The translations under genes were made by a program, and so were the position numbers. A DNA stretch of 37,137 bases from a virus (lineage: Duplodnaviria; Heunggongvirae; Uroviricota; Caudoviricetes), in IMG/VR virus record IMGVR_UViG_2703718793_000014, one strand, 5' to 3'. Below the pieces are notes generated by a model. That model made no database searches. It was not told the DNA's origin and saw nothing but the letters and a program-made list of their open reading frames with translations. How positions within the stretch are numbered: the first letter of the stretch is position 1; each line of letters starts with the position of its first letter. Below are positions 7,986 to 34,066 of the stretch, piece by piece.

Positions 7986-8016
7986 CGATTAATTAATCAA
8001 CATAAGGAAAAGCGAC

Positions 8017-15234: not shown

Positions 15235-15279
15235 TCAACTCACGGCGGGCATCATACCCGCCTGTAACGGAGAGAAAAA

Positions 15280-16080: not shown

Positions 16081-16182
16081 CGACTGACCCCGTCAGCGGG
16101 CGGCGTGCGCGGTGTTCCGGTTTGACTCCGTGACCGTTTACACCGCGCACCCACCGCCCGATTTTTTTCAGGAGTGAACCCC

Positions 16183-16877: not shown

Positions 16878-16879
16878 CA

Positions 16880-17203
16880 GTGAGCACCATTCAAACAGGG
16901 ATCACAGAGCAGGTTATTGCGTGGCTCTTTGACCACCTGCCAACGGTGTATGCAGTAGGCGCGGCGGTCAGCATTTCCGCGCTGATGAGTCTTTATGACG
17001 GACGAACACTGGTTCAGACCGTAACGGGATCGCTGGCGTGCGGCGTTCTTGCCATGGCCGTGGCCGGGTCGTTGCGCTTCTTCGGGTTTCCTGAAGATGC
17101 CGTGACGTTTATCGGCGCATCAATCGGTTTTATGGGGGCAGAGAAAGCACGCGACAAGGTTATTGCGGCCTTTAATCGCAGGGTGAAGGAGAAGGACGAA
17201 TGA
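16880..17203 (+). CDS. Holin-like membrane protein
   Basis: About 107 aa from GTG 16880 (start uncertain); three hydrophobic segments and a charged C-terminal tail; positioned just before the endolysin gene. Confidence 0.55.
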   Translation: MSTIQTGITEQVIAWLFDHLPTVYAVGAAVSISALMSLYDGRTLVQTVTGSLACGVLAMAVAGSLRFFGFPEDAVTFIGASIGFMGAEKARDKVIAAFNRRVKEKDE

Positions 17204-17592
17204 GCAACACATTTAAATTCAGCAGCCGGAGCGAAAAGAATTTGCAGGGCGTAAATCCTGATCTGGTGAAAGTGACCCGACGGGCACTGGAAATCTCGGA
17301 AGTGGATTTTGGTATCACCGAAGGGTTGCGCAGCCGTTACCGCCAGAAGCAACTGGTGGCCACGGGTAAGAGCCAGACCATGAACAGCCGCCACCTTACG
17401 GGACATGCCGTGGATGTTGTGGCTTATATCGGCAGCCAGGTGTCATGGGAATGGCCGCTGTACGAAAAAATCGCAGCAGCATTCAGACAGGCCAGCCGGG
17501 AACTGAATATTCCGGTGGAATGGGGAGGCGACTGGAAGACTCTGAAAGACGGACCGCATTTTCAGTTACCACACGGAGCCTATCCGGCATGA
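17200..17592 (+). CDS. Endolysin, peptidase M15 family (L-alanyl-D-glutamate peptidase type)
   Basis: 130 aa; zinc-binding motif SRHLTGHAVDVVAY and C-terminal DGPHFQL are typical of M15 peptidase endolysins; not the lysozyme fold of P2 K. Confidence 0.8.
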   Translation: MSNTFKFSSRSEKNLQGVNPDLVKVTRRALEISEVDFGITEGLRSRYRQKQLVATGKSQTMNSRHLTGHAVDVVAYIGSQVSWEWPLYEKIAAAFRQASRELNIPVEWGGDWKTLKDGPHFQLPHGAYPA

Positions 17593-17996
17593 AGCTCTGG
17601 CCCACGCTTGGCGTCGCTTTCCTTCTGATTGCCGGATGGGGAACATCCATGCGTCTGTCGTGGTCGCTGGGCCGGGAGAACGCCAGAAACGAAGCGCAGG
17701 CCAGCACCCTGAAAAGTACCGCCGACACCCTGAATATCATCAGCGCCGGGGTACAGGATATGCAGCAGGTGCTGGCGCAACTCCGCGTGGAAAATCAGCA
17801 ACGCAATCAGGACGGAGAGGTAAGACGTGAACAGCTACGCAACGATATTGCAAAAGATGAATGCGCCCACGCTTTGCCTGACGCTCGTTTTACTGACAGG
17901 CTGCGCAGGCACGCAGAACGCGCCACTGCCAGCGCCGTCAGTCCGGCTTATACCGCAGACGCTGACCATACCGGTAACGCCTCCCCCCTTCCCTGA
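17589..17996 (+). CDS. Rz-like inner-membrane spanin (LysB-like)
   Basis: Start MKLWPTLGVAFLLIAGWG (N-terminal TM) overlapping the endolysin stop (ATGA); coiled-coil periplasmic domain. Confidence 0.75.
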   Translation: MKLWPTLGVAFLLIAGWGTSMRLSWSLGRENARNEAQASTLKSTADTLNIISAGVQDMQQVLAQLRVENQQRNQDGEVRREQLRNDIAKDECAHALPDARFTDRLRRHAERATASAVSPAYTADADHTGNASPLP

Positions 17997-18147
17997 TACT
18001 CCCACATGGGGAAATCTCGGTATATGGGGCGACCGCCTTCTGGATGCACTGGAAACCTGTAACGCGGATAAACGGGCCATTGAATTACTGGAACAGCGCA
18101 GGCTGCAACGACTGAACAACGAGGATAACAACCATGCTGAAAACTGA
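17857..18147 (+). CDS. Rz1-like outer-membrane lipoprotein spanin (LysC-like)
   Basis: Begins embedded in the Rz-like gene in another frame; signal peptide with lipobox LLTGC; proline-rich. Start codon uncertain (17827 or 17857). Confidence 0.65.
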   Translation: MNAPTLCLTLVLLTGCAGTQNAPLPAPSVRLIPQTLTIPVTPPPFPDTPTWGNLGIWGDRLLDALETCNADKRAIELLEQRRLQRLNNEDNNHAEN

Positions 18148-18601
18148 TTCCCTGCGTGAAGCCATGACCCGTTCATGCCGATGGTGTCAGGCCAACCCGG
18201 AAAAATTCACCATTTTCGTGGAGAGCGGCAACATTGAAACGACCGGAGAAACGCCCTCGTTTGTTTACCGCTATCAGATGGTGATGTTTGTCATGGATTA
18301 CGCCGGGGAGCTGGACGACCTCACGCTGCCGCTACTGGCGTGGTTATCCGAAAATCAGCCACAGTTGTTGCTCAATCCGGAGCGTAATCAGGACATCAAA
18401 TTCTCCGCCGTTATCAATGACGATGACAGCGCCGATCTCCTGTTTACGCTCCCCCTGCGGGAACGCGTTCGCATCACGCGCAGCAGTCAGGGCACACCGC
18501 AGGCAGAACACCTGCCTGAGCCAAAACCCCGCCTGCCATCTTCCGAAGGCGACTGGTCGCATGTATTCCAGGATGTGACGTGGGGTGAAAGCGATGGATA
18601 A
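18134..18601 (+). CDS. R: Tail completion protein R (P2 gpR family)
   Basis: 155 aa; position and translation consistent with gpR. Confidence 0.8.
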   Translation: MLKTDSLREAMTRSCRWCQANPEKFTIFVESGNIETTGETPSFVYRYQMVMFVMDYAGELDDLTLPLLAWLSENQPQLLLNPERNQDIKFSAVINDDDSADLLFTLPLRERVRITRSSQGTPQAEHLPEPKPRLPSSEGDWSHVFQDVTWGESDG

Positions 18602-19229
18602 GGCATTCACCCGCGTGGATGAAACCTTTGAGGCCATCCGCGACAGCCTGAATCAGCAGGCCATCAATAACATCGCCAGAAAGCTGGCACAGGATTTACG
18701 CCGCGCCCAGCAGGCGCGTATCCGGTCACAGAAAGCGCCGGACGGGACCGCGTGGACACCACGCAGACGCCGCGTAACCCGGATACAGGAACGCATTCGC
18801 TTTATCTGGAATAACGAAGCACGCACGCTGAAAAACTGGCATCACGACACGGGGAAATACGGGCGAACCATTACCGGGTGGGATGAGGATAAAAACAATA
18901 TCCGCACGTTTTACCGGGATGACATCGACCGTTTTCTGGAAATACGCACCCGGCGCATCAACCAGGACAGCACAAAGCGCGTCCCCATGTTCGTAAAACT
19001 GCGCACCGCCCGCTACCTGAAAGCCCGTGCAGATGCTTCCGGTGTGACGGTGGGTTACAGCGGCGTGGCCGCACGTATTGCACGCGTTCATCAGTTCGGT
19101 GAGCGCGATCAGGTTGCGCCGGGCATTTTCACCGATTACCCGGTACGTGAGCTGCTGGGTATCAGCCAGGCAGATGAGCGCCTGATTTATAACACGGTGC
19201 TGGGCCGGATTGCGGAGGCTGTACGGTGA
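18594..19229 (+). CDS. S: Tail completion/virion morphogenesis protein S (P2 gpS family)
   Basis: Start at ATG 18594 overlapping the R stop (ATGGATAA); the track ORF starts at GTG 18585. Confidence 0.75.
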   Translation: MDKAFTRVDETFEAIRDSLNQQAINNIARKLAQDLRRAQQARIRSQKAPDGTAWTPRRRRVTRIQERIRFIWNNEARTLKNWHHDTGKYGRTITGWDEDKNNIRTFYRDDIDRFLEIRTRRINQDSTKRVPMFVKLRTARYLKARADASGVTVGYSGVAARIARVHQFGERDQVAPGIFTDYPVRELLGISQADERLIYNTVLGRIAEAVR

Positions 19230-19807
19230 GCGCAGAACTCATGCGACTGCTGAGCAACATCATCCGTACCGGGATCATCTCTGAAGTTGATGAGGAATCC
19301 TGGTGCGTGCGCGTTCGCAGCGGCGAACTGGAAACAGGCTGGCTGCGCTGGAACACCACGCGCGCGGGAGCCTTCAATGTGTGGCTGCCGCCATCACCCG
19401 GCGAACAGGTGGTAATTGCCTGCATTGGCGGCAACCCGGAAACCGCCATGATAATTGGCAGCCTGTGGAGTGATGCCATTCCGGCCCCCGGCAAAAGCCT
19501 GAAAGAAATCGTGGTCAGCGCGCCGGATGGCGCGGTGTTCCGCTACGACGCGGACGCAGGCGCACTGAGCGCCAGCGGCATGAAAACAGCCACCCTGCAG
19601 GCATCCGTCAGCGTGACACTGGATACGCCCGTCGTGGAATGCACAGACCTTCTGAGAACGGCGACGCTTGACGTCACAAAAGGGGGAAAGATGAGCGGCA
19701 ATATCACGCACAGCGGCGGCAATTTCACCTCAAACGGCATCACAGTGCATACGCATAAACACGGTGGCGTTAAAGGTGGCAGCGATTCGACAGGAGGCCC
19801 GCAGTGA
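19226..19807 (+). CDS. V: Baseplate spike/assembly protein V
   Basis: 193 aa; P2 gpV-like translation; first gene of the V-W-J-I-H-G block. Confidence 0.85.
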   Translation: MSAELMRLLSNIIRTGIISEVDEESWCVRVRSGELETGWLRWNTTRAGAFNVWLPPSPGEQVVIACIGGNPETAMIIGSLWSDAIPAPGKSLKEIVVSAPDGAVFRYDADAGALSASGMKTATLQASVSVTLDTPVVECTDLLRTATLDVTKGGKMSGNITHSGGNFTSNGITVHTHKHGGVKGGSDSTGGPQ

Positions 19808-20154
19808 CAACCCGCTACACAGGAATGAACCCGGACGGAACGGGAAACCTGAACGATATGGAGCACCTGAAACAGTCAGTCAGGGACATCCTGACCACCC
19901 CGCTGGCAAGCCGGGTTATGCGACGGGAATATGGCAGCCTTGTGCCTGATTTGATTGACGAACCCATGAATAACACCACGCGTCTGCAATGCATGAGTGC
20001 TGCCGTGATTGCACTGACACGATGGGAACCCCGCATTGCCCTGGATGCCATCGATGTTGTCTGGAAAGCAGGAGGCCGCGCCGGGGTGACGCTGTCGGGC
20101 ACTGTCATGCAGACCATGCAGAATGTTGAATTAACCATCACGCTGAGAGAGTAA
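19804..20154 (+). CDS. W: Baseplate wedge protein W (gp25-like)
   Basis: 116 aa; P2 gpW-like. Confidence 0.85.
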   Translation: MTTRYTGMNPDGTGNLNDMEHLKQSVRDILTTPLASRVMRREYGSLVPDLIDEPMNNTTRLQCMSAAVIALTRWEPRIALDAIDVVWKAGGRAGVTLSGTVMQTMQNVELTITLRE

Positions 20155-20157
20155 ATC

Positions 20158-21054
20158 ATGCCTGCCGTTGACCTTTCCCAGTTACCGGAACCCGCCATCA
20201 TAGCGGAGCCTGACTTTGAGGCAATTCTGGCTGACACAAAGGCCATGATGATTGCGGCTTATCCCGCCGAACAGCGTGAAGCCGTTTCCGCCGCGCTGGA
20301 GCTGGAATCGGAACCCCTTAACGTTATCGCTCAAACCATGTCGTTTCGTGAAATGCTGTTACGCCAGCGGGTTAACGAGGGCGCACGCGCCTGCATGTTA
20401 AGCCACAGTTCAGGGACAAACCTGGACAACCTCGCGGGCAATATGAACACAAAGCGCCTGGTTATCACTCCGGCAACGGATACCACCGACGCGGTGATGG
20501 AGAGCGACACCTCGCTGAGACTGCGGGCGCAGCGGGCGTATGACGGCCTGAGTGTTGCAGGCCCGTCAGGCGCATACGAGTATTTTGCACGCAGCGCCAG
20601 CGGTCTGGTGCGTGATGCGCGGGCCATCAGCCCGTCTCCGGCCTGTGTGACGGTTTCCATTCTGTCCACTGAAGGCGACGGCACAGCAACGGAGGCGTTG
20701 CTTAATACCGTTCGCGCCGTTCTGAATGCAGAGGATACCCGCCCGGTGGCCGACCGCCTGACGGTACAGAGCGCCAGAATCGTGACATGGCGGCTGAATG
20801 CAAAACTGTACTTTTACCCCGGCCCGGAATCCGAACCTATTCTGGCCGCGGCAGAATCGTCATTCAGGAAGTGGCTGGCTGAACAGGGGCTTATCGGTCA
20901 GGACGTGGCGTTGTCCGCCATTGCTGCCGCACTGCATGTGCACGGTGTGCAACGCGTGGAGATAATCGAACCCACACAGAATATGGCCATCAGCGACATA
21001 CAGGCGGCGCGCTGTGAGTCATTTATCATCAGCGAAGGTGGGCGCAATGAGTAA
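20158..21054 (+). CDS. J: Baseplate assembly protein J
   Basis: 298 aa; P2 gpJ-like. Confidence 0.85.
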   Translation: MPAVDLSQLPEPAIIAEPDFEAILADTKAMMIAAYPAEQREAVSAALELESEPLNVIAQTMSFREMLLRQRVNEGARACMLSHSSGTNLDNLAGNMNTKRLVITPATDTTDAVMESDTSLRLRAQRAYDGLSVAGPSGAYEYFARSASGLVRDARAISPSPACVTVSILSTEGDGTATEALLNTVRAVLNAEDTRPVADRLTVQSARIVTWRLNAKLYFYPGPESEPILAAAESSFRKWLAEQGLIGQDVALSAIAAALHVHGVQRVEIIEPTQNMAISDIQAARCESFIISEGGRNE

Positions 21055-21577
21055 TTCGTTGTTACCACCATCAGCCAGCAATTTCATGCGTTGTGCCGAA
21101 GCTGTCGGAGCGCGCATTACAAATATCCCGGTAGACCTCAACACGCTGTGGTCGCCGGACACATGCCCGGTGCATCTGCTGCCTTATCTCGCCTGGGCAT
21201 TTTCCGTTGACCGCTGGGATCGCAACTGGCCGGAAGAGACAAAGCGACAGGTGATTCGTGATGCATGGCTGATACACCGACACAAAGGGACCATCAGCGC
21301 ACTGCGCCGGGCCATTGAGCCGCTGGGATACCTCATTCGTGTGTCTGAGTGGTGGGAGTTCGGCGGAGAACCGGGAACATTTACCGTTGAAGTCGGCACG
21401 CTGGACAGTGGCGTGACGGAGGAAATGTATCTGGAAATGGAGCGGTTGATTGCTGATGCCCGCCCGGTCAGCCGCCACATGACAGGGCTGAATATCATTC
21501 AGGAGATCCCGGGGGATATTTTCGCGGCGGCAGCAACTTACGACGGTGAAGTCATTACCATTTATCCGGACGATTAA
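21047..21577 (+). CDS. I: Baseplate/tail-fibre attachment protein I
   Basis: 176 aa from ATG 21047 ([13 protein letters not shown]), overlapping the J stop. Confidence 0.8.
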
Positions 21578-21579
21578 GC

Positions 21580-23739
21580 ATGAGTACCACAACACGAAAA
21601 TTTAAAACCATTATCACTGATACTGGTGCCAAAAAATTAGCTCAGGCAGCCGCGCCAGATGGTAATCCTGTCCGCCTGACTCACATGGCCGTGGGCGACG
21701 GTGGCGGCACGTTGCCCACACCAGACAGTAAGCAGACCCGTCTGGTGCATGAGGTGTGGCGACATACTGTTAATCGCGTCATCCTGGACGCAACACATCA
21801 GAACCGCATTATTGCGGAGCTGGTTATTCCTCCTGAAACGGGCGGATTCTGGATCCGGGAAATTGGTGTATTTGATGAGCACGGCGATTTGATCGCGGTG
21901 GGCAATACTGCCGAAAGTTACAAACCAACCGTTGCCGAAGGATCCGGACGTGCACAAACATTTCGCACCATTCTGACCGTATCCAGCACTGCCACCGTGG
22001 CGCTTACCGTGGATAACACCATGGTTATGGCCACAGTGGATTACGTGAATGACAAACTGAAAGAACATGAACAGTCACGACGTCACCCGGACGCCTCGCT
22101 GACCGCAAAAGGCTTTGTTCAACTCAGTAGCGCCACCAACAGCACGTCTGAAGCACTGGCCGCAACGCCGAAAGCGGTCAAGGCAGCCTATGACCTTGCT
22201 ATCGGGAAATATACCGCACAGGACGCCACTACAGCGCGGAAAGGACTTGTCCAGCTCAGTAGCGCCACCAACAGCGATTCAGAAACGCTGGCGGCAACAC
22301 CAAAGGCGGTAAAGGCAACATATGACCTTGCTAACGGGAAATATACTGCGCAGGATGCCACCACAGCGCGGAAAGGCCTTGTCCAGCTCAGTAGCGCCAC
22401 CAACAGCACGTCTGAAGCACTGGCCGCAACACCGAAAGCGGTAAAGACAGCATATGACCTTGCTAACGGGAAATATACCGCTCAGGACGCTACGACAGCA
22501 CAAAAAGGGATTGTCCAGCTAAGCAGCGCGACTAACAGCACATCTGAAACGCTTGCCGCGACACCGAAAGCAGTGAAAGCAGCTAATGACAATGCGAATG
22601 GTCGGGTACCTTCTGCCCGTAAGGTGAATGGTAAGGCGCTTTCAGCGGATATTACACTGACGCCGAAAGATATTGGTACGCTTAACTCAACAACTATGTC
22701 ATTCAGCGGTGGTGCTGGTTGGTTCAAATTAGCAACGGTAACCATGCCGCAGGCGAGTTCTGTTGTTTCAATTACGTTGATTGGTGGCGCGGGATTTAAC
22801 GTGGAGTCACCTCAACAGGCAGGTATATCTGAACTTGTTCTTCGTGCGGGAAATGGAAATCCAAAAGGTCTTACTGGTGCGTTATGGCGACGGACATCGG
22901 TTGGATTTACTAATTTTGCATGGGTGAATACATCCGGTGATACCTATGATGTTTATGTTGAAATAGGTAATTACGCCACAGGTGTTAATATTCAATGGGA
23001 TTATACCAGTAACGCCAGCGTAACGATTCATACTTCACCAGCATATTCTGCTAATAAGCCGGAAGGATTAACGGACGGTTCTGTTTATTCGCTGTATATT
23101 TCGCCTCATGAACTTTATCCGGTTGGCGCACCGATCCCTTGGCCATCAGATACCGTTCCGTCTGGTTATGCCCTGATGCAGGGGCAGACTTTTGACAAAT
23201 CTGCATACCCGAAACTTGCAGCCGCTTATCCGTCAGGCGTGATCCCTGATATGCGTGGCTGGACGATTAAGGGCAAGCCCGCCAGTGGTCGTGCCGTATT
23301 GTCTCAGGAACAGGACGGCATTAAATCGCACACCCACAGCGCCAGCGTATCCAGTACGGATTTGGGTACGAAAACCACATCGTCGTTTGATTACGGGACG
23401 AAAACAACCTCACTATTTGACTATGGGACCAAAACTACCAGTAACGCCGGGAGTCACACGCATTCAATACCAACATCAGATGGTGCAAACCAGGGGGGGA
23501 AAATTCCACTGACATCTGGGCGTCTGGCAACTCAATATACATCAGCAACAACAGGTTCCTCTGGCTCACATTCTCATACTGTAGGTATTGGTTCTCATCA
23601 GCACACTGTCGGTATTGGTGCACACACGCACTCGGTTGCGATTGGCTCACATGGACACACCATCACCGTTAACGCTGCTGGTAACGCGGAAAACACCGTC
23701 AAAAACATCGCATTTAACTATATTGTGAGGCTTGCATGA
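21580..23739 (+). CDS. H: Tail fibre protein H
   Basis: 719 aa; conserved N-terminal baseplate-attachment region, internal tandem 44-aa repeats, and a C-terminal His-rich tip [34 protein letters not shown]. Confidence 0.9.
22108..22600 (+). repeat. Tandem 132-bp (44-codon) repeats inside H, about 3.7 copies
   Basis: Repeat units start at 22108, 22240, 22372 and 22504; each encodes KG(F/L/I)VQLSSATNS...LAATPKAVK...[17 protein letters not shown] with few substitutions. Confidence 0.85.
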
Positions 23740-24638
23740 TTACGCTCATTCTTTCTGCACCAGTAACAGAAATGGCTGAAGCATTTAAGCGGGTATTTGC
23801 AAACGCAGATAATGTGAATATTGTCGGAAAGCCATTTGAAACAATCAGAGAATTTGACTGTATGGTAAGTGCGGCAAATAGTTTCGGCCTGATGGATGGC
23901 GGTGTTGATGCCGCCATTACCGCATTCTTCGGTACTCAGTTACAGTCCCGCGTTCAGAATCATATTCTTCGTGAATATCTAGGCGAGCAGCCTGTAGGAT
24001 CTGCGTTTGTTATTGAAACGGGGCATAATCATCACCCCTGGCTGGTACATGCGCCAACAATGCGTGTTCCGTTGACAATTGACGGAACAGACGCTGTATA
24101 TAACGCAACCTGGGCCGCTCTGCTTGCCATCTTTCAGCACAATAAAAACGCAACGACAGACAGGAAAATAAAGACGGTGGTATTCCCTGCGATGGGGGCT
24201 GGATGTGGTCAGGTACCGTTTGAAAGTGTTGCCCGCCAGATGAAGCAGGCCTGGGATAACTTTAATAAAAAAACAGAATCAATTAACTGGGAATACGCAC
24301 AATCCCGCCAGTCGGCAGTATTTGGCACATATGCATACTGTCCGGGTAATTCTGTTTGCCGTTATGCGGATGCTAAATATATTGGATGCGGCGATTATCG
24401 GACGTATTGCTCACGTTCCGGGCAGGTCTGTATTAACCCTGAACATCAGGCTGATGATGTACTGATACAACATCAGGCTAATAACCGGTTTCGCCCTGAT
24501 TCGCATATACACCGGATTAATCCAGAAAATCCCGTAGGTAATGTCACCTCTGGCGCACATAGCCACAGAAGTAGCATCGTTATTGGTGCTCACACCCATA
24601 CGCTCAATAAACAATATTCTGTCTCTGATATTAAGTAG
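23736..24638 (+). CDS. Macro-domain protein with tail-fibre-tip-like His-rich C-terminus
   Basis: 300 aa; macro-domain blocks [46 protein letters not shown] and [20 protein letters not shown] align by eye to E. coli YmdB-type macro domains. The C-terminus [20 protein letters not shown] echoes the HxH tip of H. Start overlaps the H stop. Confidence 0.7.
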
Positions 24639-24646
24639 AGGTGAAC

Positions 24647-25225
24647 ATGGATTTCAGAATGAGTGAACAACCACGGACCATAAAAATTTATAATCTGCTG
24701 GCCGGAACTAATGAATTTATTGGTGAAGGTGACGCATACATTCCGCCTCATACAGGTCTGCCAGCAAACAGTACCGATATTGCACCGCCAGATATTCCGG
24801 CTGGCTTCGTGGCTGTTTTCAACAGTAATGAGGCATCGTGGCATCTCGTTGAAGATCATCGGGGTAAAACGGTTTATGACGTGGCTTCCGGCGACGCGTT
24901 ATTTATTTCTGAACTCGGTCCGTTACCGGAAAATGTTACCTGGTTGTCGCCGGATGGAGAGTGTCAGAAGTGGAACGGCACATCCTGGGCGAAAGATGCA
25001 GAAGCAGAAAAACTGTTTCGGGTACGGGAGGCAGAAGAAACAAAAAACAGCCTGATGCAGGTAGCCAGTGAGCATATTGCGCCACTTCAGGATGCCGTAG
25101 ATTTGGATATTGCGACGGAGGAAGAGGCATCGTTACTGGCTGCATGGAAGACATATCGGGTATTGTTGAATCGTGTTGATACAACAGTAGCAGCGGATGT
25201 TGAGTGGCCAGTCGCCCCACAATAA
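24647..25225 (+). CDS. G: Tail fibre assembly chaperone (P2 gpG / Tfa family)
   Basis: 192 aa from ATG 24647 (GAGGT upstream); position after the fibre genes; translation typical of Tfa proteins. Confidence 0.8.
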
Positions 25226-25230
25226 AAAGA

Positions 25231-25260
25231 AAAAGCCATCGACAGAAATATCGATGGCTT
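25231..25260. terminator. Bidirectional terminator hairpin between convergent genes
   Basis: AAAGCCATCGA-(loop)-TCGATGGCTTT with flanking A/T runs; lies between the G stop and the stop of the minus-strand acetyltransferase. Confidence 0.6.
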
Positions 25261-25268
25261 TATGTACT

Positions 25269-25841
25269 CTATTTATACAATACAACACCACTCTTTTTAG
25301 TTATATATGTGCAGTTTGATGGTATATCTTTATTTATAAAAGACATTGCACCTATTTTTACATTATCCCCAATTTTACGTGATAATCCAATGATGCAACA
25401 ATTAGCTCCGATATCAACGTTACTACCAATTTTTACTCTTGAACTAGGCATATCACCATCTATCTGTCCAATGGTAGTATTCTGTCGTAATACCAGATTT
25501 TCACCCGCATCAACAGCAAAATGAACAACAATTCCAGCATGATGGGGAATTGTCAACCCTTTTCCAATATTTGCGCCCAATCCTATTTCACAACCAAACT
25601 TGTTAATTATTTTACTGTTTAACTTTTTGGCTGCTTTCTTATGTAATTTATTACCATTAATATACATTTCGTTAGCCAACCGCCACCAGAAAAGGAAATT
25701 CCGGTTACGCTGCTTTTTCTCTCTTAAAAGCCTCCAGATATCCATACGTTTCCGCCGAATTACTTCATGTTTCCAGAAGTTTTTTAAATTAGTAGAGTTT
25801 CCAAATAAAACAAAGTGAATTGCCATTAAGTAAGATAGCAC
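25269..25841 (-). CDS. Hexapeptide-repeat (left-handed beta-helix) acetyltransferase, CysE/WcaB-like
   Basis: Visibly AT-rich ORF; translation has canonical hexapeptide repeats GLGANIGKGLTIPHHAGIVV...IGSNVDIGANCCIIG...IGDNVKIGAMSFIN. Start chosen at GTG 25841 (AAGGAG 6 nt upstream); the track ORF extends to ATG 25874. Confidence 0.7.
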   Translation of the reverse strand: MLSYLMAIHFVLFGNSTNLKNFWKHEVIRRKRMDIWRLLREKKQRNRNFLFWWRLANEMYINGNKLHKKAAKKLNSKIINKFGCEIGLGANIGKGLTIPHHAGIVVHFAVDAGENLVLRQNTTIGQIDGDMPSSRVKIGSNVDIGANCCIIGLSRKIGDNVKIGAMSFINKDIPSNCTYITKKSGVVLYK

Positions 25842-25997
25842 GATAATCTCCTTAATTATTATTTCAGACCACACATGTTATAAGGTTAAGAGATTATAAA
25901 ATCCTGTTATTTGTTATTCAAAAACAATTTTCTGAGAAGGACATACAACAGCAAGTCGCCAGTCACCTTCATCAGGAAATTGGCGACATACGTTAAA

Positions 25998-26492
25998 TCA
26001 GAGCAGCCCCTTAACTGAGCTGGCCGCGCTATTAAGGGATGATGTCACCTTATCTTTGAAGCCGGACAGCATATCGCTGAACGATGAGGATTGCAGGCGC
26101 TCCCGCAAATCCTCATCACAGCGTTCAAGAGTCAGTGAAAATTCTATCTTTTTCGCCTTACCGTAGCGATCAAACTCGGAGCGGGTCGTATTCGTTCCGG
26201 TCAGGACATACATGCCGTAAATCTGCCCGACGCCATCAATCAAAGGCCAAGGACGTCCTGTATATGCCTGCGTGGTCAACAACGACAGCGACACTTCGCC
26301 ACCAGTAATCTCAGGATAAAGAACACCAGAAAGAACGATGCGATCATCACCTGCACCGATATACTGCCAGCTTGCTGAACGGTTAACGCGTTCATTTTTC
26401 ACATGTCGCCAGCTTTTGTTTTGCTGTAACTGCTGATGCGGCAACGTGCGCAGCTCAAAAACAAACATGCCGTAGATCATCATCATGGCCAT
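25998..26492 (-). CDS. U: Tail protein U (P2 gpU family)
   Basis: 164 aa; last gene of the minus-strand sheath/tube/tape-measure block; gpU-like translation. Confidence 0.8.
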   Translation of the reverse strand: MAMMMIYGMFVFELRTLPHQQLQQNKSWRHVKNERVNRSASWQYIGAGDDRIVLSGVLYPEITGGEVSLSLLTTQAYTGRPWPLIDGVGQIYGMYVLTGTNTTRSEFDRYGKAKKIEFSLTLERCDEDLRERLQSSSFSDMLSGFKDKVTSSLNSAASSVKGLL

Positions 26493-26498
26493 GACTCC

Positions 26499-29342
26499 TC
26501 AATCTTTATCGTAAAAACTGCCACGCCTGGCACGGGCGCGCCGTTCCATTTCTGCCCTGACCATTTCGCCGACCAGTTTCGCCAGTTCGCGGGGATTCTG
26601 CGTAACAACGTTATGCAGATGAACATGAATTTCACCGCCAAATCCGGAGGCAACAGGCTCCCGGTTACGGGAAGTTGCAGGAACTGATGCCACTGGCGAT
26701 CGTATGGCCTCCACCACCGGGCGGGAGCTGGCCGCAACAACAGGGACCAGCGCCGGAGGCAGCGGAGCCGGGACCACGGGTGTGATATTAATTGCGGGGG
26801 CAGGCTTACTGACCTGCGCAATCTTCCGCTCCTGCCACTCCCCACGAACAGCAAGTGCGCGGGGCAGGTTCTTAAAGACAATATCGCCGGGGCCAATGCG
26901 TTTTTTTGTCTCATCAACCAGCTTACCTGTGTTATCAGCAATTTTGCTGAGTCTGCGTAGCGTGCCGGTATTGCTGTCTGTGAGAGGTTTGTTGTCTTTG
27001 GGTTTATCATCTCCGGTGCCATTGCTATTTCCCGCAGACTTCGGCGGATTGATTTTCGCAATGTCTCCCTGAAACAGAGCAACCTTGTCCTGAAGAATGG
27101 CCGCACGTTGTGCGTCTTCGATTTTCTTGCGCGCCCTTTCCGCTTCATCCGGAAGCACACCGAGTTTTTCAAGTATCCACGCCAGCGTATCCAGCAACAT
27201 TTTTGCAGGCGTCAGAACAAGCTGTAACGCACCACCAAGAACGTTACCGAATACCTCGCCAGCACTGGTACATTTATCCAGCGTTTCCTTGCTGGACTCC
27301 ATCGGTGACAGCAGCGATTTAAACCAGTTAAACACCTGGCTGATCCCGCTTCCGATTGCGTCAAAAACAGGGCCAAACCGTTCAAAGGTGTCGCGCAACG
27401 GGGTCAGCCTTTCCATAATCCCGCTGAACACCCCGGCAAAGAAAGCCCTGATAGGATCCCAGTATTTCCAGATAAGAACGGCAGCTCCGGCAAGCGCAGC
27501 CACGATAAGACCAACCGGACTGAACAACGCCCCGATAACGCCTCCCAGTAAAGAAACGGAACCCGTCACCATTCCCCATAGCGCAGGTAACACCCTGACG
27601 ACATTCATTGACCGGGTAAGAATGTCAAAACCAAGACGCAGGGTGGCCAGCTTCCCGTAAAGCACCCCAATAACCAGCGACAACGAGCCAATCGTTGCAG
27701 TCATTGCCAGCAACGCACCGCCTGCTATCAGTAGCTGGCGCGTCAGTACCGGATGGGCCTGCGCCAGCGAGGTGATTTTTTCAAGCACCCGCGTGAGCCA
27801 CTGCGTGACAGAACGCAGCGGACCGTCAACCAGATCACTGATGCGAATACGAAGACCTTCCCATGCGCTGTCGAGATTTTTCAGGTCCCCATCAAGATTA
27901 TCAGCCATTACTTTTGCGACGCGATCGGCCTCTCCCCTTGCCCCCTGCAATTCTCTGGTCAGTTTTTGCAGCTCTCCTGAACCAGCCGCCGCAACAAGCG
28001 TCTGCAAACCAACGAACGCCTCTTCTCCGGCGATGTCCTTGAAGAAGGAGACCTGGTCCACCTGTCCGTATTTTTGTGTCGCCTTATAGAGATCAAGCAG
28101 CACATCCTCCATCGGGCGCATTTTGCCTCTGGCGTCAGCAACTGACACCCCCAGCTCTTTCAGTGCATCAGCCGCAGCTTTTGGCGGTGATGCAAGGCGG
28201 GACAGACTTGCGCGCATGGCCGTGCCAGCATCGCTTCCGCGAAGACCATTATTGGCAAGCATCCCGGCCATGGCCGCCGCTTCTTCAAGACTGATACCAA
28301 GTTTTGCGGCAACCGGACCGGTATACTTCATGGTTTCGCCCAGCGCGCGTAAATCAGTATTGGTCCGGGTAAATGCTGCTGTCAGCGTATCGCCCACCCG
28401 GTCCATTTGATCGGCTGTCAGGTTGAACTGTGTGAGGATATTGGAGCCTATATCAGCCGTCTCGCCGAGTTCGACGCCACCTGCCAGCGCCATATTAAGA
28501 ACACCGGGCAATGCGGCCTGAATGGCCTGCGGAGTAAAACCAGCCATTGCCAGAAAGCTCTGCCCACTGGCGGCATCACTCGCAGTAAACTGTGTTTCAG
28601 AGCCAAGTTTTAACGCCTGCTCACGCAGCGCCTTAAACTGCGGGCTGTTTTTGTCGATTCGCGTCAGTGCCTGAACGCGGGACATCTCTTTGCCGAACCC
28701 GATCGCAGGCTGCAAAAAACGCCCGGCAGCATAGCCGCCCGCCGCTGCCGCACCAATTGCCAGCGCACCACCTGTTTTCAGTTTTCCCGCGGTTTCCTGC
28801 GCGCGCGAATACCGCTCACGCGCCTGCGTTACACGCGCAAGCGCCTGCCGTTCGCGTTCAAGCTGGTTGTTGTATTGTTCGGTGCGTCTGATGGCCTGCT
28901 GAATGGTGTTATCGCTGCCTGTCAGGGAAATGCCGTGGCGTTTCAGCTCTCCGCCAAGTTCCCGCATTTTCTGAATTTCCCGTGTGCGCGATTCATTCAG
29001 GCGTTCAAGCCGGGTGCTTAACTGCTGCATCAGCTTTTGTTGTTTTTCGCTGAGCACTGTACCCGTGCGTTGTAACTGATTAAGGGCGTTAAGCTGGCGT
29101 CGTGCTTTCACGATGCCAGCATCCGCTTTACTGACAGCGTCGCGGGCGCGCTCAAATGATCGCGCCTGACGCTCGAGATTTTTGATCGCCCCCTGCGTTC
29201 GCTGGATGGAGTCACCAAACTGCCCCATCAGGCGGCGTGCGTTTTCGGCAGGTCGGGTCAGCCTGTCAACGGCGCTGAAAGCGACCCGGATATCAAGAGT
29301 CTTCATTGTCTGCATTCCCGCTGCGAAGTGCCGCCCGCTCAC
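26499..29342 (-). CDS. T: Tail tape measure protein T
   Basis: 947 aa; long helical protein with hydrophobic central segments and Ala/Gly-rich repeats; start overlaps the end of the E' frame, as in P2. Confidence 0.9.
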   Translation of the reverse strand: MSGRHFAAGMQTMKTLDIRVAFSAVDRLTRPAENARRLMGQFGDSIQRTQGAIKNLERQARSFERARDAVSKADAGIVKARRQLNALNQLQRTGTVLSEKQQKLMQQLSTRLERLNESRTREIQKMRELGGELKRHGISLTGSDNTIQQAIRRTEQYNNQLERERQALARVTQARERYSRAQETAGKLKTGGALAIGAAAAGGYAAGRFLQPAIGFGKEMSRVQALTRIDKNSPQFKALREQALKLGSETQFTASDAASGQSFLAMAGFTPQAIQAALPGVLNMALAGGVELGETADIGSNILTQFNLTADQMDRVGDTLTAAFTRTNTDLRALGETMKYTGPVAAKLGISLEEAAAMAGMLANNGLRGSDAGTAMRASLSRLASPPKAAADALKELGVSVADARGKMRPMEDVLLDLYKATQKYGQVDQVSFFKDIAGEEAFVGLQTLVAAAGSGELQKLTRELQGARGEADRVAKVMADNLDGDLKNLDSAWEGLRIRISDLVDGPLRSVTQWLTRVLEKITSLAQAHPVLTRQLLIAGGALLAMTATIGSLSLVIGVLYGKLATLRLGFDILTRSMNVVRVLPALWGMVTGSVSLLGGVIGALFSPVGLIVAALAGAAVLIWKYWDPIRAFFAGVFSGIMERLTPLRDTFERFGPVFDAIGSGISQVFNWFKSLLSPMESSKETLDKCTSAGEVFGNVLGGALQLVLTPAKMLLDTLAWILEKLGVLPDEAERARKKIEDAQRAAILQDKVALFQGDIAKINPPKSAGNSNGTGDDKPKDNKPLTDSNTGTLRRLSKIADNTGKLVDETKKRIGPGDIVFKNLPRALAVRGEWQERKIAQVSKPAPAINITPVVPAPLPPALVPVVAASSRPVVEAIRSPVASVPATSRNREPVASGFGGEIHVHLHNVVTQNPRELAKLVGEMVRAEMERRARARRGSFYDKD

Positions 29343-29511
29343 GCCAGCTAACCACTTCGCCGGGCGTCATCATGAAGATTTCGGCGGGCGACCAGTTAAA
29401 AATAACGGCAATATCTGCCACAAAGTCTTCTATGTGCTCAAAGCACACAACCGTGATCAGGCTTCCGTCGCCTGTTCGTTCTTCCCGCCAGAGTCCGCAC
29501 CGCTCAAAAAA
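29293..29511 (-). CDS. E' extension reached by programmed -1 frameshift from E (E+E' tape-measure chaperone)
   Basis: Slippery heptamer T-TTT-TTG in the E frame (plus-strand 29505-29511); the -1 frame continues open to 29293 and overlaps the T start. This is the conserved G/GT-type frameshift arrangement. Confidence 0.75.
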   Translation of the reverse strand, partial: FFERCGLWREERTGDGSLITVVCFEHIEDFVADIAVIFNWSPAEIFMMTPGEVVSWRERAALRSGNADNEDS

Positions 29512-29822
29512 TTTACGGCAACCACACATAACTGAATAAAGTCACGGGATGCCATTTTTTTGATCGTCACTTCATCCAGTCGCGGTGATGTCACGCGTGA
29601 CAGCAGCGTAAACATGGATTCCGCTTTCAGATTCAGCACATCAGACAGCGACAAATCTCGCAGAGATCCAGCCTGCTCAATAGCCCCGGTGATCTCCACA
29701 TACGTGATTTTTTCGCCGCCTCGCTCAATTGGTTGGGTAAGTTTTACACCACGCTCACTGGTTTCTTTCACAGTGTCAGTAACTACCGTGTTTTCGGTAT
29801 CGATGTTTTTCGTCTCTTTCAT
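29457..29822 (-). CDS. E: Tail assembly chaperone E
   Basis: 121 aa; located between tail tube and tape measure genes; contains the frameshift site near its 3' end. Confidence 0.8.
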   Translation of the reverse strand: MKETKNIDTENTVVTDTVKETSERGVKLTQPIERGGEKITYVEITGAIEQAGSLRDLSLSDVLNLKAESMFTLLSRVTSPRLDEVTIKKMASRDFIQLCVVAVNFLSGADSGGKNEQATEA

Positions 29823-29876
29823 CAGGAAACTCCTTTCAGTCAGAGGCGACGCACTGCGCCGCCTGCATATTACTTA

Positions 29877-30389
29877 TCAGCCAAGCCCAAGCGCGGAACG
29901 GATGCGATCGGGCACAATGTCCTTGCCGTCCTTCCGGTAAATGAAGTTCAGCAGGTCAATCTCCCACAACGGGCGATCGTTAACACTCAGCTTGTAGTAG
30001 GTGTTTTTAATGGCGTAAGTGTGTGATGTGGCTTCGCCCTGTTTGGCTTCCCCCATATCAATTTCCGTCACACGTCCGCGCATTTCGACTTCATACAGGT
30101 CGCTTTCATCATCGGTGTAGTATTCCCCCGCAAAACGCAGTAGCGTGCCGTCAATCGTGCCGCCATACTTCAGGAACAGCTCACGAACTGCGCCCCCCAT
30201 GACAAAGCTCGCATCAAGCGCGGAGTCGTCCAGGCCGAGGTCAATACTTACCGCACCCATCATGCCACCACCCCGGTAGCTGTCGGTTTTGCGCGTCAGT
30301 TTAGGCAGGGTGACGGACGTCACCTTACCCACTTCGTTTTCACCATCCACAAACAGCGTAAAAAAGCGAAGATGTTTTGGTACAGCCAT
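29877..30389 (-). CDS. FII: Tail tube protein FII
   Basis: 170 aa; gpFII-like; overlaps the sheath gene stop by one base. Confidence 0.88.
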   Translation of the reverse strand: MAVPKHLRFFTLFVDGENEVGKVTSVTLPKLTRKTDSYRGGGMMGAVSIDLGLDDSALDASFVMGGAVRELFLKYGGTIDGTLLRFAGEYYTDDESDLYEVEMRGRVTEIDMGEAKQGEATSHTYAIKNTYYKLSVNDRPLWEIDLLNFIYRKDGKDIVPDRIRSALGLG

Positions 30390-31573
30390 CAGGCACCTCC
30401 CAGCACCGCAAATGCGGGACCAAAGAATTCATCAGTAAACGACTGGTAAAGCTCCATGTCTTCCAGCGGAGGAACGGGCGTATATTTGTAGCGAATACGC
30501 ACACGCCCCTGACGTAAATTCGTGGTGCTGTTATCCACGATGTCATACCAGCACTCCGCGCCAATCAGTTTCCCGGCAGTAACCAGTGAATCCAGTTTTG
30601 CCCTGATGGCACTGATAACATCCTTCACGTTCGCAGGTGTCAGTGGACTGTCGATGGTTTCAAACTGCGCTTCCGCAATTGAATCAGCCAGCACCTGTGC
30701 GGTTCGGGTATACACCTCAAAGATGTAGGCGTTCGTTTCCGGTGTGCGGTTGCCCCAGAAGCGGAACCCGTTGCGACGAATAATGGTCGTGATTTCTTTG
30801 TTGTTGAGGCTGTTGGCATCGCTGTCTTCGGCCTGCAACGACCAGAACACATGCCTCGACATCCCCAGCACATTTTTAACCGGAACGTTGGACAGTGATT
30901 TGTGCCATCCCTGCTCATGGTCAATGTACGCACGAAGGCCGCACGCATAGGCAGGCGCGGGGAACGTTTCGTTTTTGCCACTTTTCGGGTTGTAGGCGAT
31001 GAAGTCCGGCCATAAGAGCATCACCTCACGTTCGTTGAATTTCTGGCGGTAGGTAATCGCCTCAGCCATTGTGTTACAGCCGTGACATGAGGCATACACA
31101 AACGCGCGCAGTTTACCCGCAATCACGCACAGGGATTTTGTCACCGCCTCCGTGTCCAGCTCCGGCGCGGCCAGAATACGCGGACGGTATCCGATGCTTT
31201 CATCCTGCTCTGCAACAAGCAGCGCATACATCCCCGTATAGCTGCCGTCAGATTCAGAACCACCGATAACCAGTTGATCCTGCGTCTTACCGCCTTCTTC
31301 TTTGTGTTCAGCCACGCGAACGACGATCACTTTTGTGCTCACCTGGTCTGCGATAGCCTTAAGCGCACGATAAAGCGTCCCCGTAGTCCCGCATTTTCCC
31401 AGCACGTCATTGACGCGGGTCAGCAGTGTGGGCTTGTTCAGCGGGAACAGCTCCGCGTCCGCATCATCTGCCGTTGCCACGATACCGATAACACTGGAAT
31501 CAACATCATTAATCGCTGTTACCAGGTCGGTACTTTCCGTAACACGGGCACCATGAAAACGAGTTTCACTCAT
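30389..31573 (-). CDS. FI: Contractile tail sheath protein FI
   Basis: 394 aa; gpFI-like translation; first gene of the minus-strand tail block. Confidence 0.9.
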   Translation of the reverse strand: MSETRFHGARVTESTDLVTAINDVDSSVIGIVATADDADAELFPLNKPTLLTRVNDVLGKCGTTGTLYRALKAIADQVSTKVIVVRVAEHKEEGGKTQDQLVIGGSESDGSYTGMYALLVAEQDESIGYRPRILAAPELDTEAVTKSLCVIAGKLRAFVYASCHGCNTMAEAITYRQKFNEREVMLLWPDFIAYNPKSGKNETFPAPAYACGLRAYIDHEQGWHKSLSNVPVKNVLGMSRHVFWSLQAEDSDANSLNNKEITTIIRRNGFRFWGNRTPETNAYIFEVYTRTAQVLADSIAEAQFETIDSPLTPANVKDVISAIRAKLDSLVTAGKLIGAECWYDIVDNSTTNLRQGRVRIRYKYTPVPPLEDMELYQSFTDEFFGPAFAVLGGA

Positions 31574-31730: not shown

Positions 31731-32831
31731 ATGACCGACACCACCATGCAATTGCTCAGTCAGGGCACAGACCACGTGAAAGTGCCGGATTTTGATATTC
31801 TCGCGGAGGGTAAAACGCTGTCAGGCGTGGCAGAGCGCCTGATGAGCCTGTCACTGACCGACAACCGGGGATTTGAGGCGGACCAGCTCACCATCACGCT
31901 GGATGATGCGGATGGTCAGTTGCAGCTACCGCCACGGGGCGCGCGCCTGACGGTTCTCATTGGCTGGAAGGGAGAACCGCTGACAGAAAAAGGCACTTAC
32001 ATTGTTGATGAAATCGCTCACGAAGGACCGCCGGACAGGCTGACTGTTTCAGCCAGAAGCGCAGATTTTCGGGATGAATTTAACGTTAAACGTGAGGTGT
32101 CCTGGCATGATGTGACCGTTGAGCGTGTGGTATCCGCCATCGCTCATCGGTATGGTCTGAAACCACAAATCAGCGAAATGCTGATGGATATCGAAATCGA
32201 CCACGCCGACCAGACCGAAGAAAGCGACATGTCCTTCCTTACGCGCATGGCGGAAATGCTGGGCGCAATCACCACGGTAAAAAGCGGTAATCTGTTATTC
32301 ATCATGCCAGGTGGTGGCGTGAACGCACAGGGCCAGCCGTTGCCCTCGTTCGTCATTACACGCAGCAGCGGCGATCGCCATCAGTTCCGCATTGCTGACC
32401 GCGAGGCGTATACGGGTGTACGCGCCTACTGGCTTGATCTTAATTACGGGAAAAAGAAAAAAGTCAGCGTGAAACGCCGCAAACCGAAAAAGGAGAAAAG
32501 CAGCAGCCGTGAAGGTGACTATATGGAAGGTGCGGAAGGCAACGTGTTTGTGTTACGCAAGACTTATCAGAACGAACAGGCAGCAAGACGCGCAGCGGCG
32601 GCAAAGTGGCAGCAGCTACAACGCGGAGCCGCATCATTCTCCATCACGCTGGCACGTGGTCGTGCAGAACTCTACCCCGAAATGCATGGCACTGTAACAG
32701 GATTTAAAAGCGAGATTGATAATCAGGACTGGATTATTGCAAAAGCCGAGCACACCATTGATAACAGCGGCTTTACCACGCAGCTTGAACTTGAGGCAAA
32801 AATCCCGGAATGGATAGCGGAAACAGAGTGA
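31731..32831 (+). CDS. D: Tail/baseplate hub protein D (late control gene D family)
   Basis: Start at MTDTTMQLL (GGGAGGG upstream); the track ORF begins earlier at 31599; gpD-like translation. Confidence 0.85.
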   Translation: MTDTTMQLLSQGTDHVKVPDFDILAEGKTLSGVAERLMSLSLTDNRGFEADQLTITLDDADGQLQLPPRGARLTVLIGWKGEPLTEKGTYIVDEIAHEGPPDRLTVSARSADFRDEFNVKREVSWHDVTVERVVSAIAHRYGLKPQISEMLMDIEIDHADQTEESDMSFLTRMAEMLGAITTVKSGNLLFIMPGGGVNAQGQPLPSFVITRSSGDRHQFRIADREAYTGVRAYWLDLNYGKKKKVSVKRRKPKKEKSSSREGDYMEGAEGNVFVLRKTYQNEQAARRAAAAKWQQLQRGAASFSITLARGRAELYPEMHGTVTGFKSEIDNQDWIIAKAEHTIDNSGFTTQLELEAKIPEWIAETE

Positions 32832-32995
32832 GCAACTTAAATATATTAACTCGCTTATAGCACTTAACAGTCTGACATCTAGCCTTGTCACAAAAATTGT
32901 AAGCGCCATCATATTCTCTTGACTCAAGATAAGTGACTATGTGATCTTTTATGATGTTACCTCATTTGGGTTAATATATTAAAAGGAGTTGGAAA

Positions 32996-34066
32996 ATGTC
33001 TCTAGTTACCCGCAATGTATTCATTGATACTGAGTTTTTTGTAAAAGCAAACCTGGACTTCAACTCAAAAACTATAAAATCATTTGAAGAACTATGTAGA
33101 AATGATGAGTTCAGGCATATTTCTACAACAATTGTAGTTAAAGAAGTTGAGCGAAAAATCATCGAGCATATACAAGAAGCATTGAAAGGGATTAACAATT
33201 TCCGACGAAAGGCTGTTATCCTCAAAGAATATGAAGATGACAATATTAAAAATCTATTTTGTGAAATTAATGAAACAGACATTCGAGAAAAGGCATTAAG
33301 CGCATTTAATGGTTTCATGGAGGACTCAAACACAACTATTGTAGATATGTCGAAGGTGGACCTCAATGAAGTTATAGACATGTACTTTGATAAAAAAAGC
33401 CCCTTTAGTGCGAAAAAACCTAACGAATTTCGAGACGCCTTCACTCTTTTAGCAATACGTTCCGCGCTAGGAGATAATGAAAAAATTTATGTGGTTTCAG
33501 AAGACCCTGACCTAAAAGGTTACTGTGAAGACAATGATAATTTCATAATTATAGGAGCACTAAACTTACTACTAGATGATTACAACAAACACAATGACGA
33601 AAGAACTGGATTTATAGAACGTTTTTTAGAAAGCAAAAATGAAGAAATCATACAAAAATTAACGGAAGAATTAGAAACTGCTGAAGCTTATAATTCTTCA
33701 ACATGGGAAGACTCAGAGATTGATAGCTTTGAAATTACGAACATAAGCGAATTTGAACCCAAAATAATTCATTTGGATGACGAAAGTTGTCAAATTACTT
33801 TTGATGTTACTGTTAGTTTTAATGTCACTGCCAGCGGACCTGATACCGCAAACGGCTATTATGACAAAGAGGATGGAAAATTTTATACCTTTGACACCGT
33901 ATCTAATCACGAGGAGGAGGAAAAGGATTTTACAGTAGAACTAGAATTATTCTTTGAAATAGACGAAGGCCAGTTTATCAATGATGAGTTTAATTTGCAC
34001 ATAAATGGACTGGATGCTGGTATTGAATTTTGTGTCGATGAAAACTCATGGGAAGACTATAGATAG
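32996..34066 (+). CDS. PIN-like nuclease domain protein with acidic C-terminal domain of unknown function (cargo gene)
   Basis: 356 aa, markedly AT-rich, AAAGGAG Shine-Dalgarno. Ordered PIN hallmarks: VFIDTEFF (first Asp), VVKEVERK (Glu), IVDMSKVD, YVVSEDPDLKGY (Ser-x-Asp-x-Asp). No partner gene visible. Confidence 0.6.
   Translation: MSLVTRNVFIDTEFFVKANLDFNSKTIKSFEELCRNDEFRHISTTIVVKEVERKIIEHIQEALKGINNFRRKAVILKEYEDDNIKNLFCEINETDIREKALSAFNGFMEDSNTTIVDMSKVDLNEVIDMYFDKKSPFSAKKPNEFRDAFTLLAIRSALGDNEKIYVVSEDPDLKGYCEDNDNFIIIGALNLLLDDYNKHNDERTGFIERFLESKNEEIIQKLTEELETAEAYNSSTWEDSEIDSFEITNISEFEPKIIHLDDESCQITFDVTVSFNVTASGPDTANGYYDKEDGKFYTFDTVSNHEEEEKDFTVELELFFEIDEGQFINDEFNLHINGLDAGIEFCVDENSWEDYR

Follow-up and report, generated by a model that had tools for sequence, protein, structure and literature searches.

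Between the tail fiber genes and the remaining tail block of a P88-like (Xuanwuvirus) prophage of the P2 family in Escherichia coli lies an AT-rich gene whose product looks, from its sequence, like an active transferase that has a CysE-like fold and depends on acetyl-CoA; the gene would be lysogenic-conversion cargo (a moron). The element is IMG/VR virus record IMGVR_UViG_2703718793_000014, the whole 37,137-nucleotide (nt) stretch of which is referred to here as the window, and the gene lies within the interval 25231-25997. With middling confidence, we suggest that the enzyme may O-acetylate the lipopolysaccharide (LPS) core in lysogens and so mask a phage receptor. A first-pass annotation of the window had offered acetylation of a surface polysaccharide with a change in receptor availability or, alternatively, a metabolic or defense function; our analysis favors the former and narrows it to the LPS core. 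The features of the gene are as follows.

25269 to 25841, minus strand: coding sequence of the CysE-like beta-helix acetyltransferase, 190 amino acids, from GTG at 25841 to a TAG stop at 25271-25269
25544-25542, minus strand: codon of the predicted catalytic His100
25589-25587, minus strand: codon of the acidic partner, Glu85
25848 to 25853, minus strand: Shine-Dalgarno sequence AAGGAG, read from the sequence, 6 nt 5' of the GTG
25893 to 25921, minus strand: sigma-70-type promoter-like site, TTGAAT-17 nt-TATAAT (-10 element at 25898-25893), 10 of 12 consensus matches
25232 to 25261, both strands: hairpin terminator of 13 bp in the 43-nt gap between tfa and the acetyltransferase gene

The open reading frame found mechanically runs from 25269 to 25874 on the minus strand, and translation probably begins at the GTG at 25841, 6 nt past AAGGAG (25853-25848). 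The RefSeq coding sequence at the equivalent position in E. coli O157:H7 is identical in length (573 nt, 190 amino acids), and this agreement together with the Shine-Dalgarno spacing points to a product of 190 amino acids encoded from 25841 to 25269. The GC content of the frame is 0.34 (34.0%) and that of the interval 0.339, against a window mean of 0.522 (standard deviation 0.058 for 573-nt segments), and GC at third codon positions is 0.288. A single further island in the window, at 32.7 to 33.9 kb, is equally AT rich. The gene is thus as AT rich as the first-pass annotation had described it, and it likewise stands isolated where the tail fiber genes give way to the remaining tail block, tfa being on one flank and gpU on the other.

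The assignment to the left-handed beta-helix (hexapeptide-repeat) acetyltransferases, also proposed at first pass, is borne out, although Pfam Hexapep alone is subthreshold (24.4 bits versus a cut-off of 27). A phmmer search of the PDB returned 35 matches, all to beta-helix acyltransferases, with serine acetyltransferases in the lead (best E value 1.5e-12); these matches span just the C-terminal 55 to 60% of CysE chains. An AlphaFold2 model built with 141 homologues has a mean predicted local distance difference test score (pLDDT) of 95 and a predicted template modeling score (pTM) of 0.88, replacing an earlier model from 43 sequences in which the beta-helix was poor (pLDDT 69) and Foldseek matches were weak. 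It comprises five helices at residues 2-82 followed by coils of short beta-strands from residue 84 to 179, and its top Foldseek matches are serine acetyltransferases throughout (E value 6e-9, template modeling scores 0.71 to 0.75). In the alignment, His100 corresponds to the catalytic His of the Neisseria and soybean serine acetyltransferases, and 140 of the 141 family sequences retain it. All 141 have Asp or Glu at position 85, that of the acidic partner (here Glu85). A motif near the N terminus, FLFWWRLA, is specific to the family.

A likely target is suggested by the chromosomal relatives of the gene. In a search of bacterial genomes, one per species, we singled out the six closest matches, three of which are in LPS-core loci. 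In Leminorella grimontii, a homologue with 48% identity and the family motifs intact is the last gene of a waaB-waaI/O-waaY-waaZ operon, which encodes LPS 1,6-galactosyltransferase (553 bits versus a curated cut-off of 385), LPS 3-alpha-galactosyltransferase (507 versus 461), the heptose(II) kinase RfaY (334 versus 248), and WaaZ (402 versus 200, TIGR04437). The homologue is convergent with the gene for the O-antigen ligase RfaL (waaL; 442 bits versus 277). The homologues of Halopseudomonas oceani (43%) and of a Pseudomonas metagenome-assembled genome (39%) are within about 600 bp of msbA, the gene for the lipid A-core flippase, called at 824 and 819 bits, respectively, versus a cut-off of 602; in the latter, the homologue and msbA are immediate neighbors in divergent orientation. 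A homologue in Intestinirhabdus (50%) adjoins genes of lipid A modification, ugd and an arnT-like one, and the neighbors of the remaining close chromosomal matches are uninformative. The H. oceani locus (L026) also holds, at 7389-8048 on the minus strand, a second and more distant CysE/EpsC-like beta-helix acetyltransferase gene, 0.85 kb from the family member.

A prophage of Morganella adds a further context. There (locus L191, 4068-7194), the genes hicAB are followed by a homologue with 47% identity and then by a gene resembling heptosyltransferases of glycosyltransferase family 9 (GT9), next to baseplate and fiber genes. The match of this gene to Pfam Glyco_transf_9 is weak, and its scores against the NCBIfam models for heptosyltransferases I, II, and III are below the cut-offs; the block of hicAB, acetyltransferase, and GT9 gene may be a two-enzyme cassette for LPS-core remodeling. 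From this genomic context, the waa operon, the msbA neighbors, and the GT9 partner, we infer the LPS core as the target.

The phages that carry the gene are consistent with such a target. P1 and P2 bind the LPS core. The receptors of Citrobacter phage phiNP and of the P88-like phage phiSM are LPS core glucose residues (II and III) (PMC6456863). As the carrier phages are binders of the LPS core, its acetylation would mask the receptor for related phages.

The mechanism that we propose runs from the prophage to the cell surface. In the lysogen, a promoter of its own would drive transcription of the gene, in antisense orientation to the late tail operon, and the hairpin shared with tfa would shield it from that operon. 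The product would be a soluble cytoplasmic O-acetyltransferase dependent on acetyl-CoA, presumably a trimer, in which His100 would serve as the general base, polarized by Glu85 of the adjoining subunit. The acceptor would not be L-serine and would most probably be a hydroxyl group on a sugar in the LPS core oligosaccharide, acetylated while lipid A-core is assembled at the inner membrane, on its cytoplasmic face, before the flip by MsbA. The closest mechanistic analogy is the mode of EpsC and WcaB, cytoplasmic acetylation of a lipid-linked glycan intermediate. Acetylation of the core would alter the receptor, so that related phages, and progeny virions too, would adsorb less to lysogens.

Several observations weigh against this proposal. 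Neighborhood is circumstantial evidence, and LPS loci account for no more than three of the six chromosomal homologues that are closest. Copies without any LPS link occur on an enteropathogenic E. coli (EPEC) plasmid, where a lineage with 50% identity is situated by type IV pilus (bfp-like) genes, in ESSI2_ev040, where the gene adjoins int and Abi genes, in a chromosomal islet of Orbus, and in an insertion sequence (IS) island of Pantoea. The site downstream of tfa is broadly permissive for cargo, so that linkage to tfa could reflect insertion tolerance and cotransfer instead of function. The promoter is called by consensus match only. We know of no report of O-acetylation in the E. coli core types. 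Finally, the paper describing phage JL22 leaves the presence of the acetyltransferase gene unexplained and calls its role unknown, and a paper on C. rodentium lists the gene as "fitness" cargo.

Some of the same observations bear on the rival that survives best, namely, that the enzyme acetylates another acceptor unrelated to the phage receptor (for instance, another envelope glycan such as an O-antigen unit, enterobacterial common antigen, or colanic acid; a nucleotide sugar; or a small molecule, be it a xenobiotic, an antibiotic, or a signal) and confers a fitness or defense benefit by an as yet undescribed route. Beta-helix acetyltransferases take many substrates, as the weak NCBIfam matches of varied types illustrate, the orphan copies on the EPEC plasmid and in IS islands and chromosomal islets are without LPS or phage neighbors, and the Z/fun region of P2-like phages, to which the site in the window corresponds in part, is a mixed-purpose hotspot that includes defense genes, as described in the hotspot literature. 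Against this, the gene has no PADLOC-DB 2.0 match at an E value of ≤0.01 and is a single gene without sensor or partner, the informative chromosomal contexts are only LPS core, lipid A export, and lipid A modification, and none of the loci examined is an O-antigen, capsule, or colanic acid cluster. We consider such an acceptor unlikely and favor the LPS core.

The proposal that the enzyme is what its database name says, a true serine O-acetyltransferase acting as an auxiliary metabolic gene that would raise O-acetylserine and cysteine or perturb CysB/CysK signaling in the lysogen, has in its favor the name itself, which PGAP and GenBank give to the protein everywhere, as well as the closest structures, all of which are CysE, and the retention of the His/acid pair. 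Classification by hidden Markov model (HMM), which had been suggested at first pass as a check on the subfamily, ranks EpsC, CysE, and WcaB highest, but every curated cut-off is missed. The best-scoring NCBIfam model is EpsC (NF041874, 76.2 bits versus a cut-off of 150), followed by the CysE model TIGR01172 (62.4 versus 210.65) and WcaB (TIGR04016, 54 to 56 versus 194.65); lower scores were obtained with the CysE model PRK11132 (NF008349, 36.6 versus 397), LacA (31 versus 347), and Maa (21 versus 314). The weaker matches include the WcaB, NeuD, LacA, Maa, and WbbJ types. In PHROGs, the protein matches phrog_2154, function unknown, with an E value of 2.9e-87 (residues 13-190 against positions 3-181 of a 185-position profile).

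The residues and architecture of the protein also depart from CysE. In the E. coli enzyme, the residues that bind L-serine are Asp157, Arg192, and His193. The position aligned with Asp157, here Pro99, is Pro, Ala, Gly, Ser, Val, or Phe in the family and never Asp, and the loop of Arg192/His193 corresponds to residues 131-135, which vary across the family. The helical domain (residues 1-82, about 80 amino acids, versus about 140 in CysE) is some 60 residues shorter, and the chain, 190 residues long versus about 273, ends about 10 residues past the last coil, without the CysK-binding C-terminal tail. Absent serine-binding residues, missed cut-offs, and truncated architecture together argue that this is not a serine acetyltransferase, and neither the waa operon nor the tail fiber context makes metabolic sense for one. 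We therefore hold a role in serine metabolism to be improbable and the database name to be probably wrong, an over-extension.

Linkage to tfa is the most persistent feature of the phage relatives. Roughly 4,800 homologues were detected. We fetched 183 loci, located the homologue in every one, and marked tfa with an iteratively built HMM. In at least 12 sequence lineages, whose identity to the window protein ranges from 36% to 99%, the homologue is followed at 4 to 90 bp by a convergent tfa. Among them are lineages at 95 to 99%, 91 to 93%, 88%, 85%, 70%, 65 to 67%, 63%, 49%, and 45%, as well as a Leclercia prophage (48%) with tfa 12 bp away (precomputed Pfam Caudo_TAP), phage phiNP (44%) with an annotated tfa 16 bp away and hicAB upstream, and Hafnia phage yong2 (36%) with a convergent tfa downstream. 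The backbones of this tfa-linked family are P88-like (with gpU upstream), of P2 order, P1-like, and those of phiNP and yong2. In the P1-like phages JL22 and vB_EcoM-Ro157c2YLVW, the tfa-acetyltransferase pair has about 92% DNA identity to the window; in P1-like phages, the acetyltransferase gene is between two alternative fiber/tfa sets, within the invertible fiber segment, and in JL22 it adjoins cin. Exceptions to the linkage are a 57% lineage at a prophage end beside hok and copA, a 54 to 55% lineage in which the gene is about 640 bp downstream of tfa and on the same strand, and the copies on the EPEC plasmid and in ESSI2_ev040.

Other P88-like prophages hold a 71%-identical paralogue in the same slot between tfa and gpU. 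In four loci (L017-L019 and L021, 6617-7605), a truncated tfa (87 amino acids) and a gene for a 222-amino-acid class I methyltransferase are inserted between this paralogue and the full tfa. These insertions are further cargo turnover at the junction of tfa and the acetyltransferase gene.

Promoter and terminator were examined in the same neighborhood. The 156-nt spacer from the gpU stop to the acetyltransferase start (GC 0.327, or 32.7%) holds the promoter-like site; promoter-like sites in the region are not more numerous than expected by chance, and so this one is argued by position alone. In the gap shared with tfa, the hairpin has a folding energy of -19.9 kcal/mol (z score, -6.2) with a clean T run on the minus strand and of -16.1 kcal/mol (z score, -5.2) with a weak T run on the plus strand. 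A bidirectional terminator on the G side, as first annotated, is therefore plausible yet asymmetric, the T run being weak on the plus strand. Wherever the gap was read in lineages with 62 to 96% identity, a hairpin was present every time; its sequence is the same or analogous in related loci and not constant among distant lineages. Within 25231-25997, an Rfam scan gave only subthreshold chance matches (Qrr, ncr1575, MIR821).

The tight tail-to-tail linkage across very different phages, including the invertible fiber segment of P1-like phages, would also suit a role in the virion, with the enzyme acetylating the tail fiber or Tfa or helping it to mature. The strand is opposite to that of the late operon, however, with a separate promoter-like site and a terminator between the genes, and the acetyltransferase gene is absent from P88, P2, and many phages with near-identical tfa. 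Homologues also occur in settings that are not those of phages, in the waa operon and beside msbA. A virion role is accordingly very improbable.

Persistent linkage to tfa fits the habit of receptor-blocking genes (T5 llp, phi80 cor, CUS-3 neuO) of standing beside receptor-binding genes. A tentative extension is that tfa, the shared hairpin, and the acetyltransferase gene could form a mobile "bind-and-mask" unit, by which each new fiber specificity would bring the matching receptor mask when host-range cassettes are exchanged among the LPS-core-specific myoviruses of the P2, P88, P1, and phiNP types. If so, this would be the first phage-borne system for acetylation of the LPS core, as distinct from the O antigen, and a CysE-like family whose members are widely mislabeled as serine acetyltransferases would receive its first functional assignment. 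It would also be a clear added example of receptor-masking genes that travel with receptor-binding genes. Were the core indeed acetylated, the gene would help to determine, in a way so far unrecognized, how sensitive cells are to P1, P2, Mu, and other phages and tailocins that bind the core, with a bearing on phage therapy, phage typing, the efficiency of P1 transduction, and LPS immunochemistry in pathogenic E. coli.

The gene is widespread and under selection. The 767-nt interval is present in 530 of 5,426 complete E. coli genomes (about 10%), at 600 places, of which 66 are on plasmids; the carriers include P1-like phage-plasmids and many O157:H7 strains, in which the identity is 100%. The ratio of nonsynonymous to synonymous substitution rates (dN/dS, Nei-Gojobori method) is 0.11 to 0.17 against alleles at 95%, 93%, 91%, 88%, 85%, and 70% identity, with dS reaching 1.9, which indicates purifying selection on a working protein. 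A decaying or silent hitchhiker without function, suggested by the foreign base composition, is scarcely credible given this dN/dS, the 510 of 530 carrier genomes that cover at least 80% of the query region, and the near-invariant catalytic residues.

Two observations on individual carriers belong here. In O157:H7 strain PV15-279 (L001, 9269-13570), the tape measure gene is cut by IS1203 and adjoins a fragment of an IS30 transposase gene. The broken tape measure indicates that the prophage is defective in this strain, and the acetyltransferase region is still 100% identical. In locus L020, the terminator of a 70%-identity allele is identical to that of the window; a swap of alleles as a cassette between identical flanks is unsupported there, blastn giving one continuous alignment from gpU to tfa with a mean identity of about 77%.

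The position of the gene in the host element can be read from its neighbors, which are given below.

21580-23739, plus strand: tail fiber gene H, flanking
23736-24638, plus strand: macro-domain open reading frame, between H and tfa
24641 to 25225, plus strand: tfa, equivalent of P2 G and convergent partner of the acetyltransferase gene (Caudo_TAP, E value 6.9e-40; phrog_105)
25998-26492, minus strand: gpU (E value 1.5e-38)
26499-29342, minus strand: tape measure, 947 amino acids, intact open reading frame

On the gpU/T side, DNA identity to P88 and further members of Xuanwuvirus is 95 to 97%. The tube and sheath genes follow the tape measure on the minus strand, and gpD comes next on the plus strand. 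As in P88, the block FI-FII-E-T-U is on the strand opposite to H-G and thus inverted relative to P2 (the sheath-tube-E-T-U block, at 26499-31573, is on the minus strand, whereas 14182-25225 is on the plus strand). Because of this inversion, the slot is between G and U rather than between G and FI. The placement at the Z/fun position of P2 made at first pass is therefore exact for relatives in P2-order prophages and needs amending for the window itself. In loci L165, L169, and L187, the order is J-I-H-G, acetyltransferase, and FI-FII-T, with the gene on the opposite strand; locus L181 has P2 gene order as well, and its acetyltransferase frame was not flagged by the script that labels open reading frames.

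That this is a variable cargo site is supported. In P88 itself, the slot between tfa and gpU holds an alternative invertible fiber/tfa set and a DNA invertase, and the cargo in the window has the properties of Z/fun-hotspot cargo, being compositionally foreign, on the opposite strand, and past the G/tfa terminator, with gpU instead of FI at the far end. Homology to P2 Fun(Z) is rejected (BLASTP E value, 14). Our literature searches found no functional study of the acetyltransferase family. An acetyltransferase is not mentioned in the Rousset 2022 and NAR 2026 hotspot papers or in the iLund4u preprint; a paper on Burkholderia P2-like phages has no such gene, and one on Gifsy defense concerns an unrelated ATPase.

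Other genes of the window deserve comment. The open reading frame at 23736-24638, which overlaps the stop of H, encodes 300 amino acids with an N-terminal Macro domain (Pfam, 8.2e-19) and His-rich motifs (GAHSH...GAHTHT) in its C-terminal part, like those of the fiber H tip. It matches phrog_2613 and phrog_14717 ("tail protein"), and a macro domain in a tail fiber module is unusual. An obligatory pairing of macro and acetyltransferase genes can be set aside, as a macro homologue is found in just 15 acetyltransferase loci and is absent from the P1-like loci. Speculatively, the macro-domain protein might be a virion-associated esterase that targets the acetyl modification proposed here.

The second AT-rich island (32700-33900, 31 to 36% GC), after gpD, includes at 32996-34066 on the plus strand a gene whose 356-amino-acid product contains a PIN_12 domain (1.5e-20) and matches nothing in PADLOC or PHROGs. 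In PV15-279, a YecA-family gene instead occupies the place between a truncated gpD homologue and ogr, and this difference marks a second variable cargo site. A match to the Rfam family RF02111 ("IS009"; 24990-25188, plus strand, 191 bits versus a gathering threshold of 117) falls wholly within tfa, in the 3' portion of its coding sequence, from which it follows that this family may represent conserved tfa coding sequence, for example in cryptic-prophage remnants, and not a small RNA.

The acetyltransferase can be compared with several known systems. With CysE (PDB 6WYE/7RA4 and 1T3D), it shares a helical N-domain, a left-handed beta-helix, and the catalytic His/acid pair; unlike CysE, it is encoded in a prophage tail fiber module and has a relative in a waa operon, outside cysteine metabolism. 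EpsC and WcaB are short CysE-like enzymes encoded in glycan biosynthesis loci, whereas the window gene is a single mobile gene outside any exopolysaccharide cluster and scores below their cut-offs. P2 Fun(Z), encoded by an AT-rich (30 to 37% GC), nonessential gene on the opposite strand directly past the G/tfa terminator (that of the V operon), resembles it in setting, but Fun(Z) has 528 amino acids, blocks T5, and is without sequence similarity to the acetyltransferase.

Lysogenic conversion through acetylation of a surface glycan is already known, and what differs here is the CysE-like enzyme class, the inferred LPS-core target, and the linkage to tfa across unrelated myovirus backbones. NeuO of prophage CUS-3 in E. 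coli K1 is a polysialic acid O-acetyltransferase of the NodL/LacA/Maa branch, phase variable by heptanucleotide repeats. It, too, is a prophage-encoded soluble hexapeptide-repeat O-acetyltransferase near a receptor-binding gene, acting on a surface glycan that is a phage receptor. The window enzyme differs in its negligible LacA and Maa scores and in a putative target that is the LPS core and not capsule, and a NeuO-like phase variation was sought and rejected, as 25150-26050 has no tandem repeats. Oac of phage Sf6 and proteins of the OafA/GtrC type are integral-membrane AT3 acyltransferases that act on the O antigen and are usually encoded beside int/att. They likewise effect lysogenic conversion by O-acetylation of LPS, changing phage adsorption and serotype; by contrast, the window enzyme would be a soluble beta-helix protein, encoded beside tfa and directed at the core. 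Finally, llp beside pb5 in T5 and cor beside the tail fiber genes of phi80 and N15 encode lipoproteins that bind FhuA. In these cases, as proposed for the window, a gene that inactivates the receptor travels with the gene that recognizes it, and the mechanism that we propose is distinguished by being an enzymatic modification of LPS.

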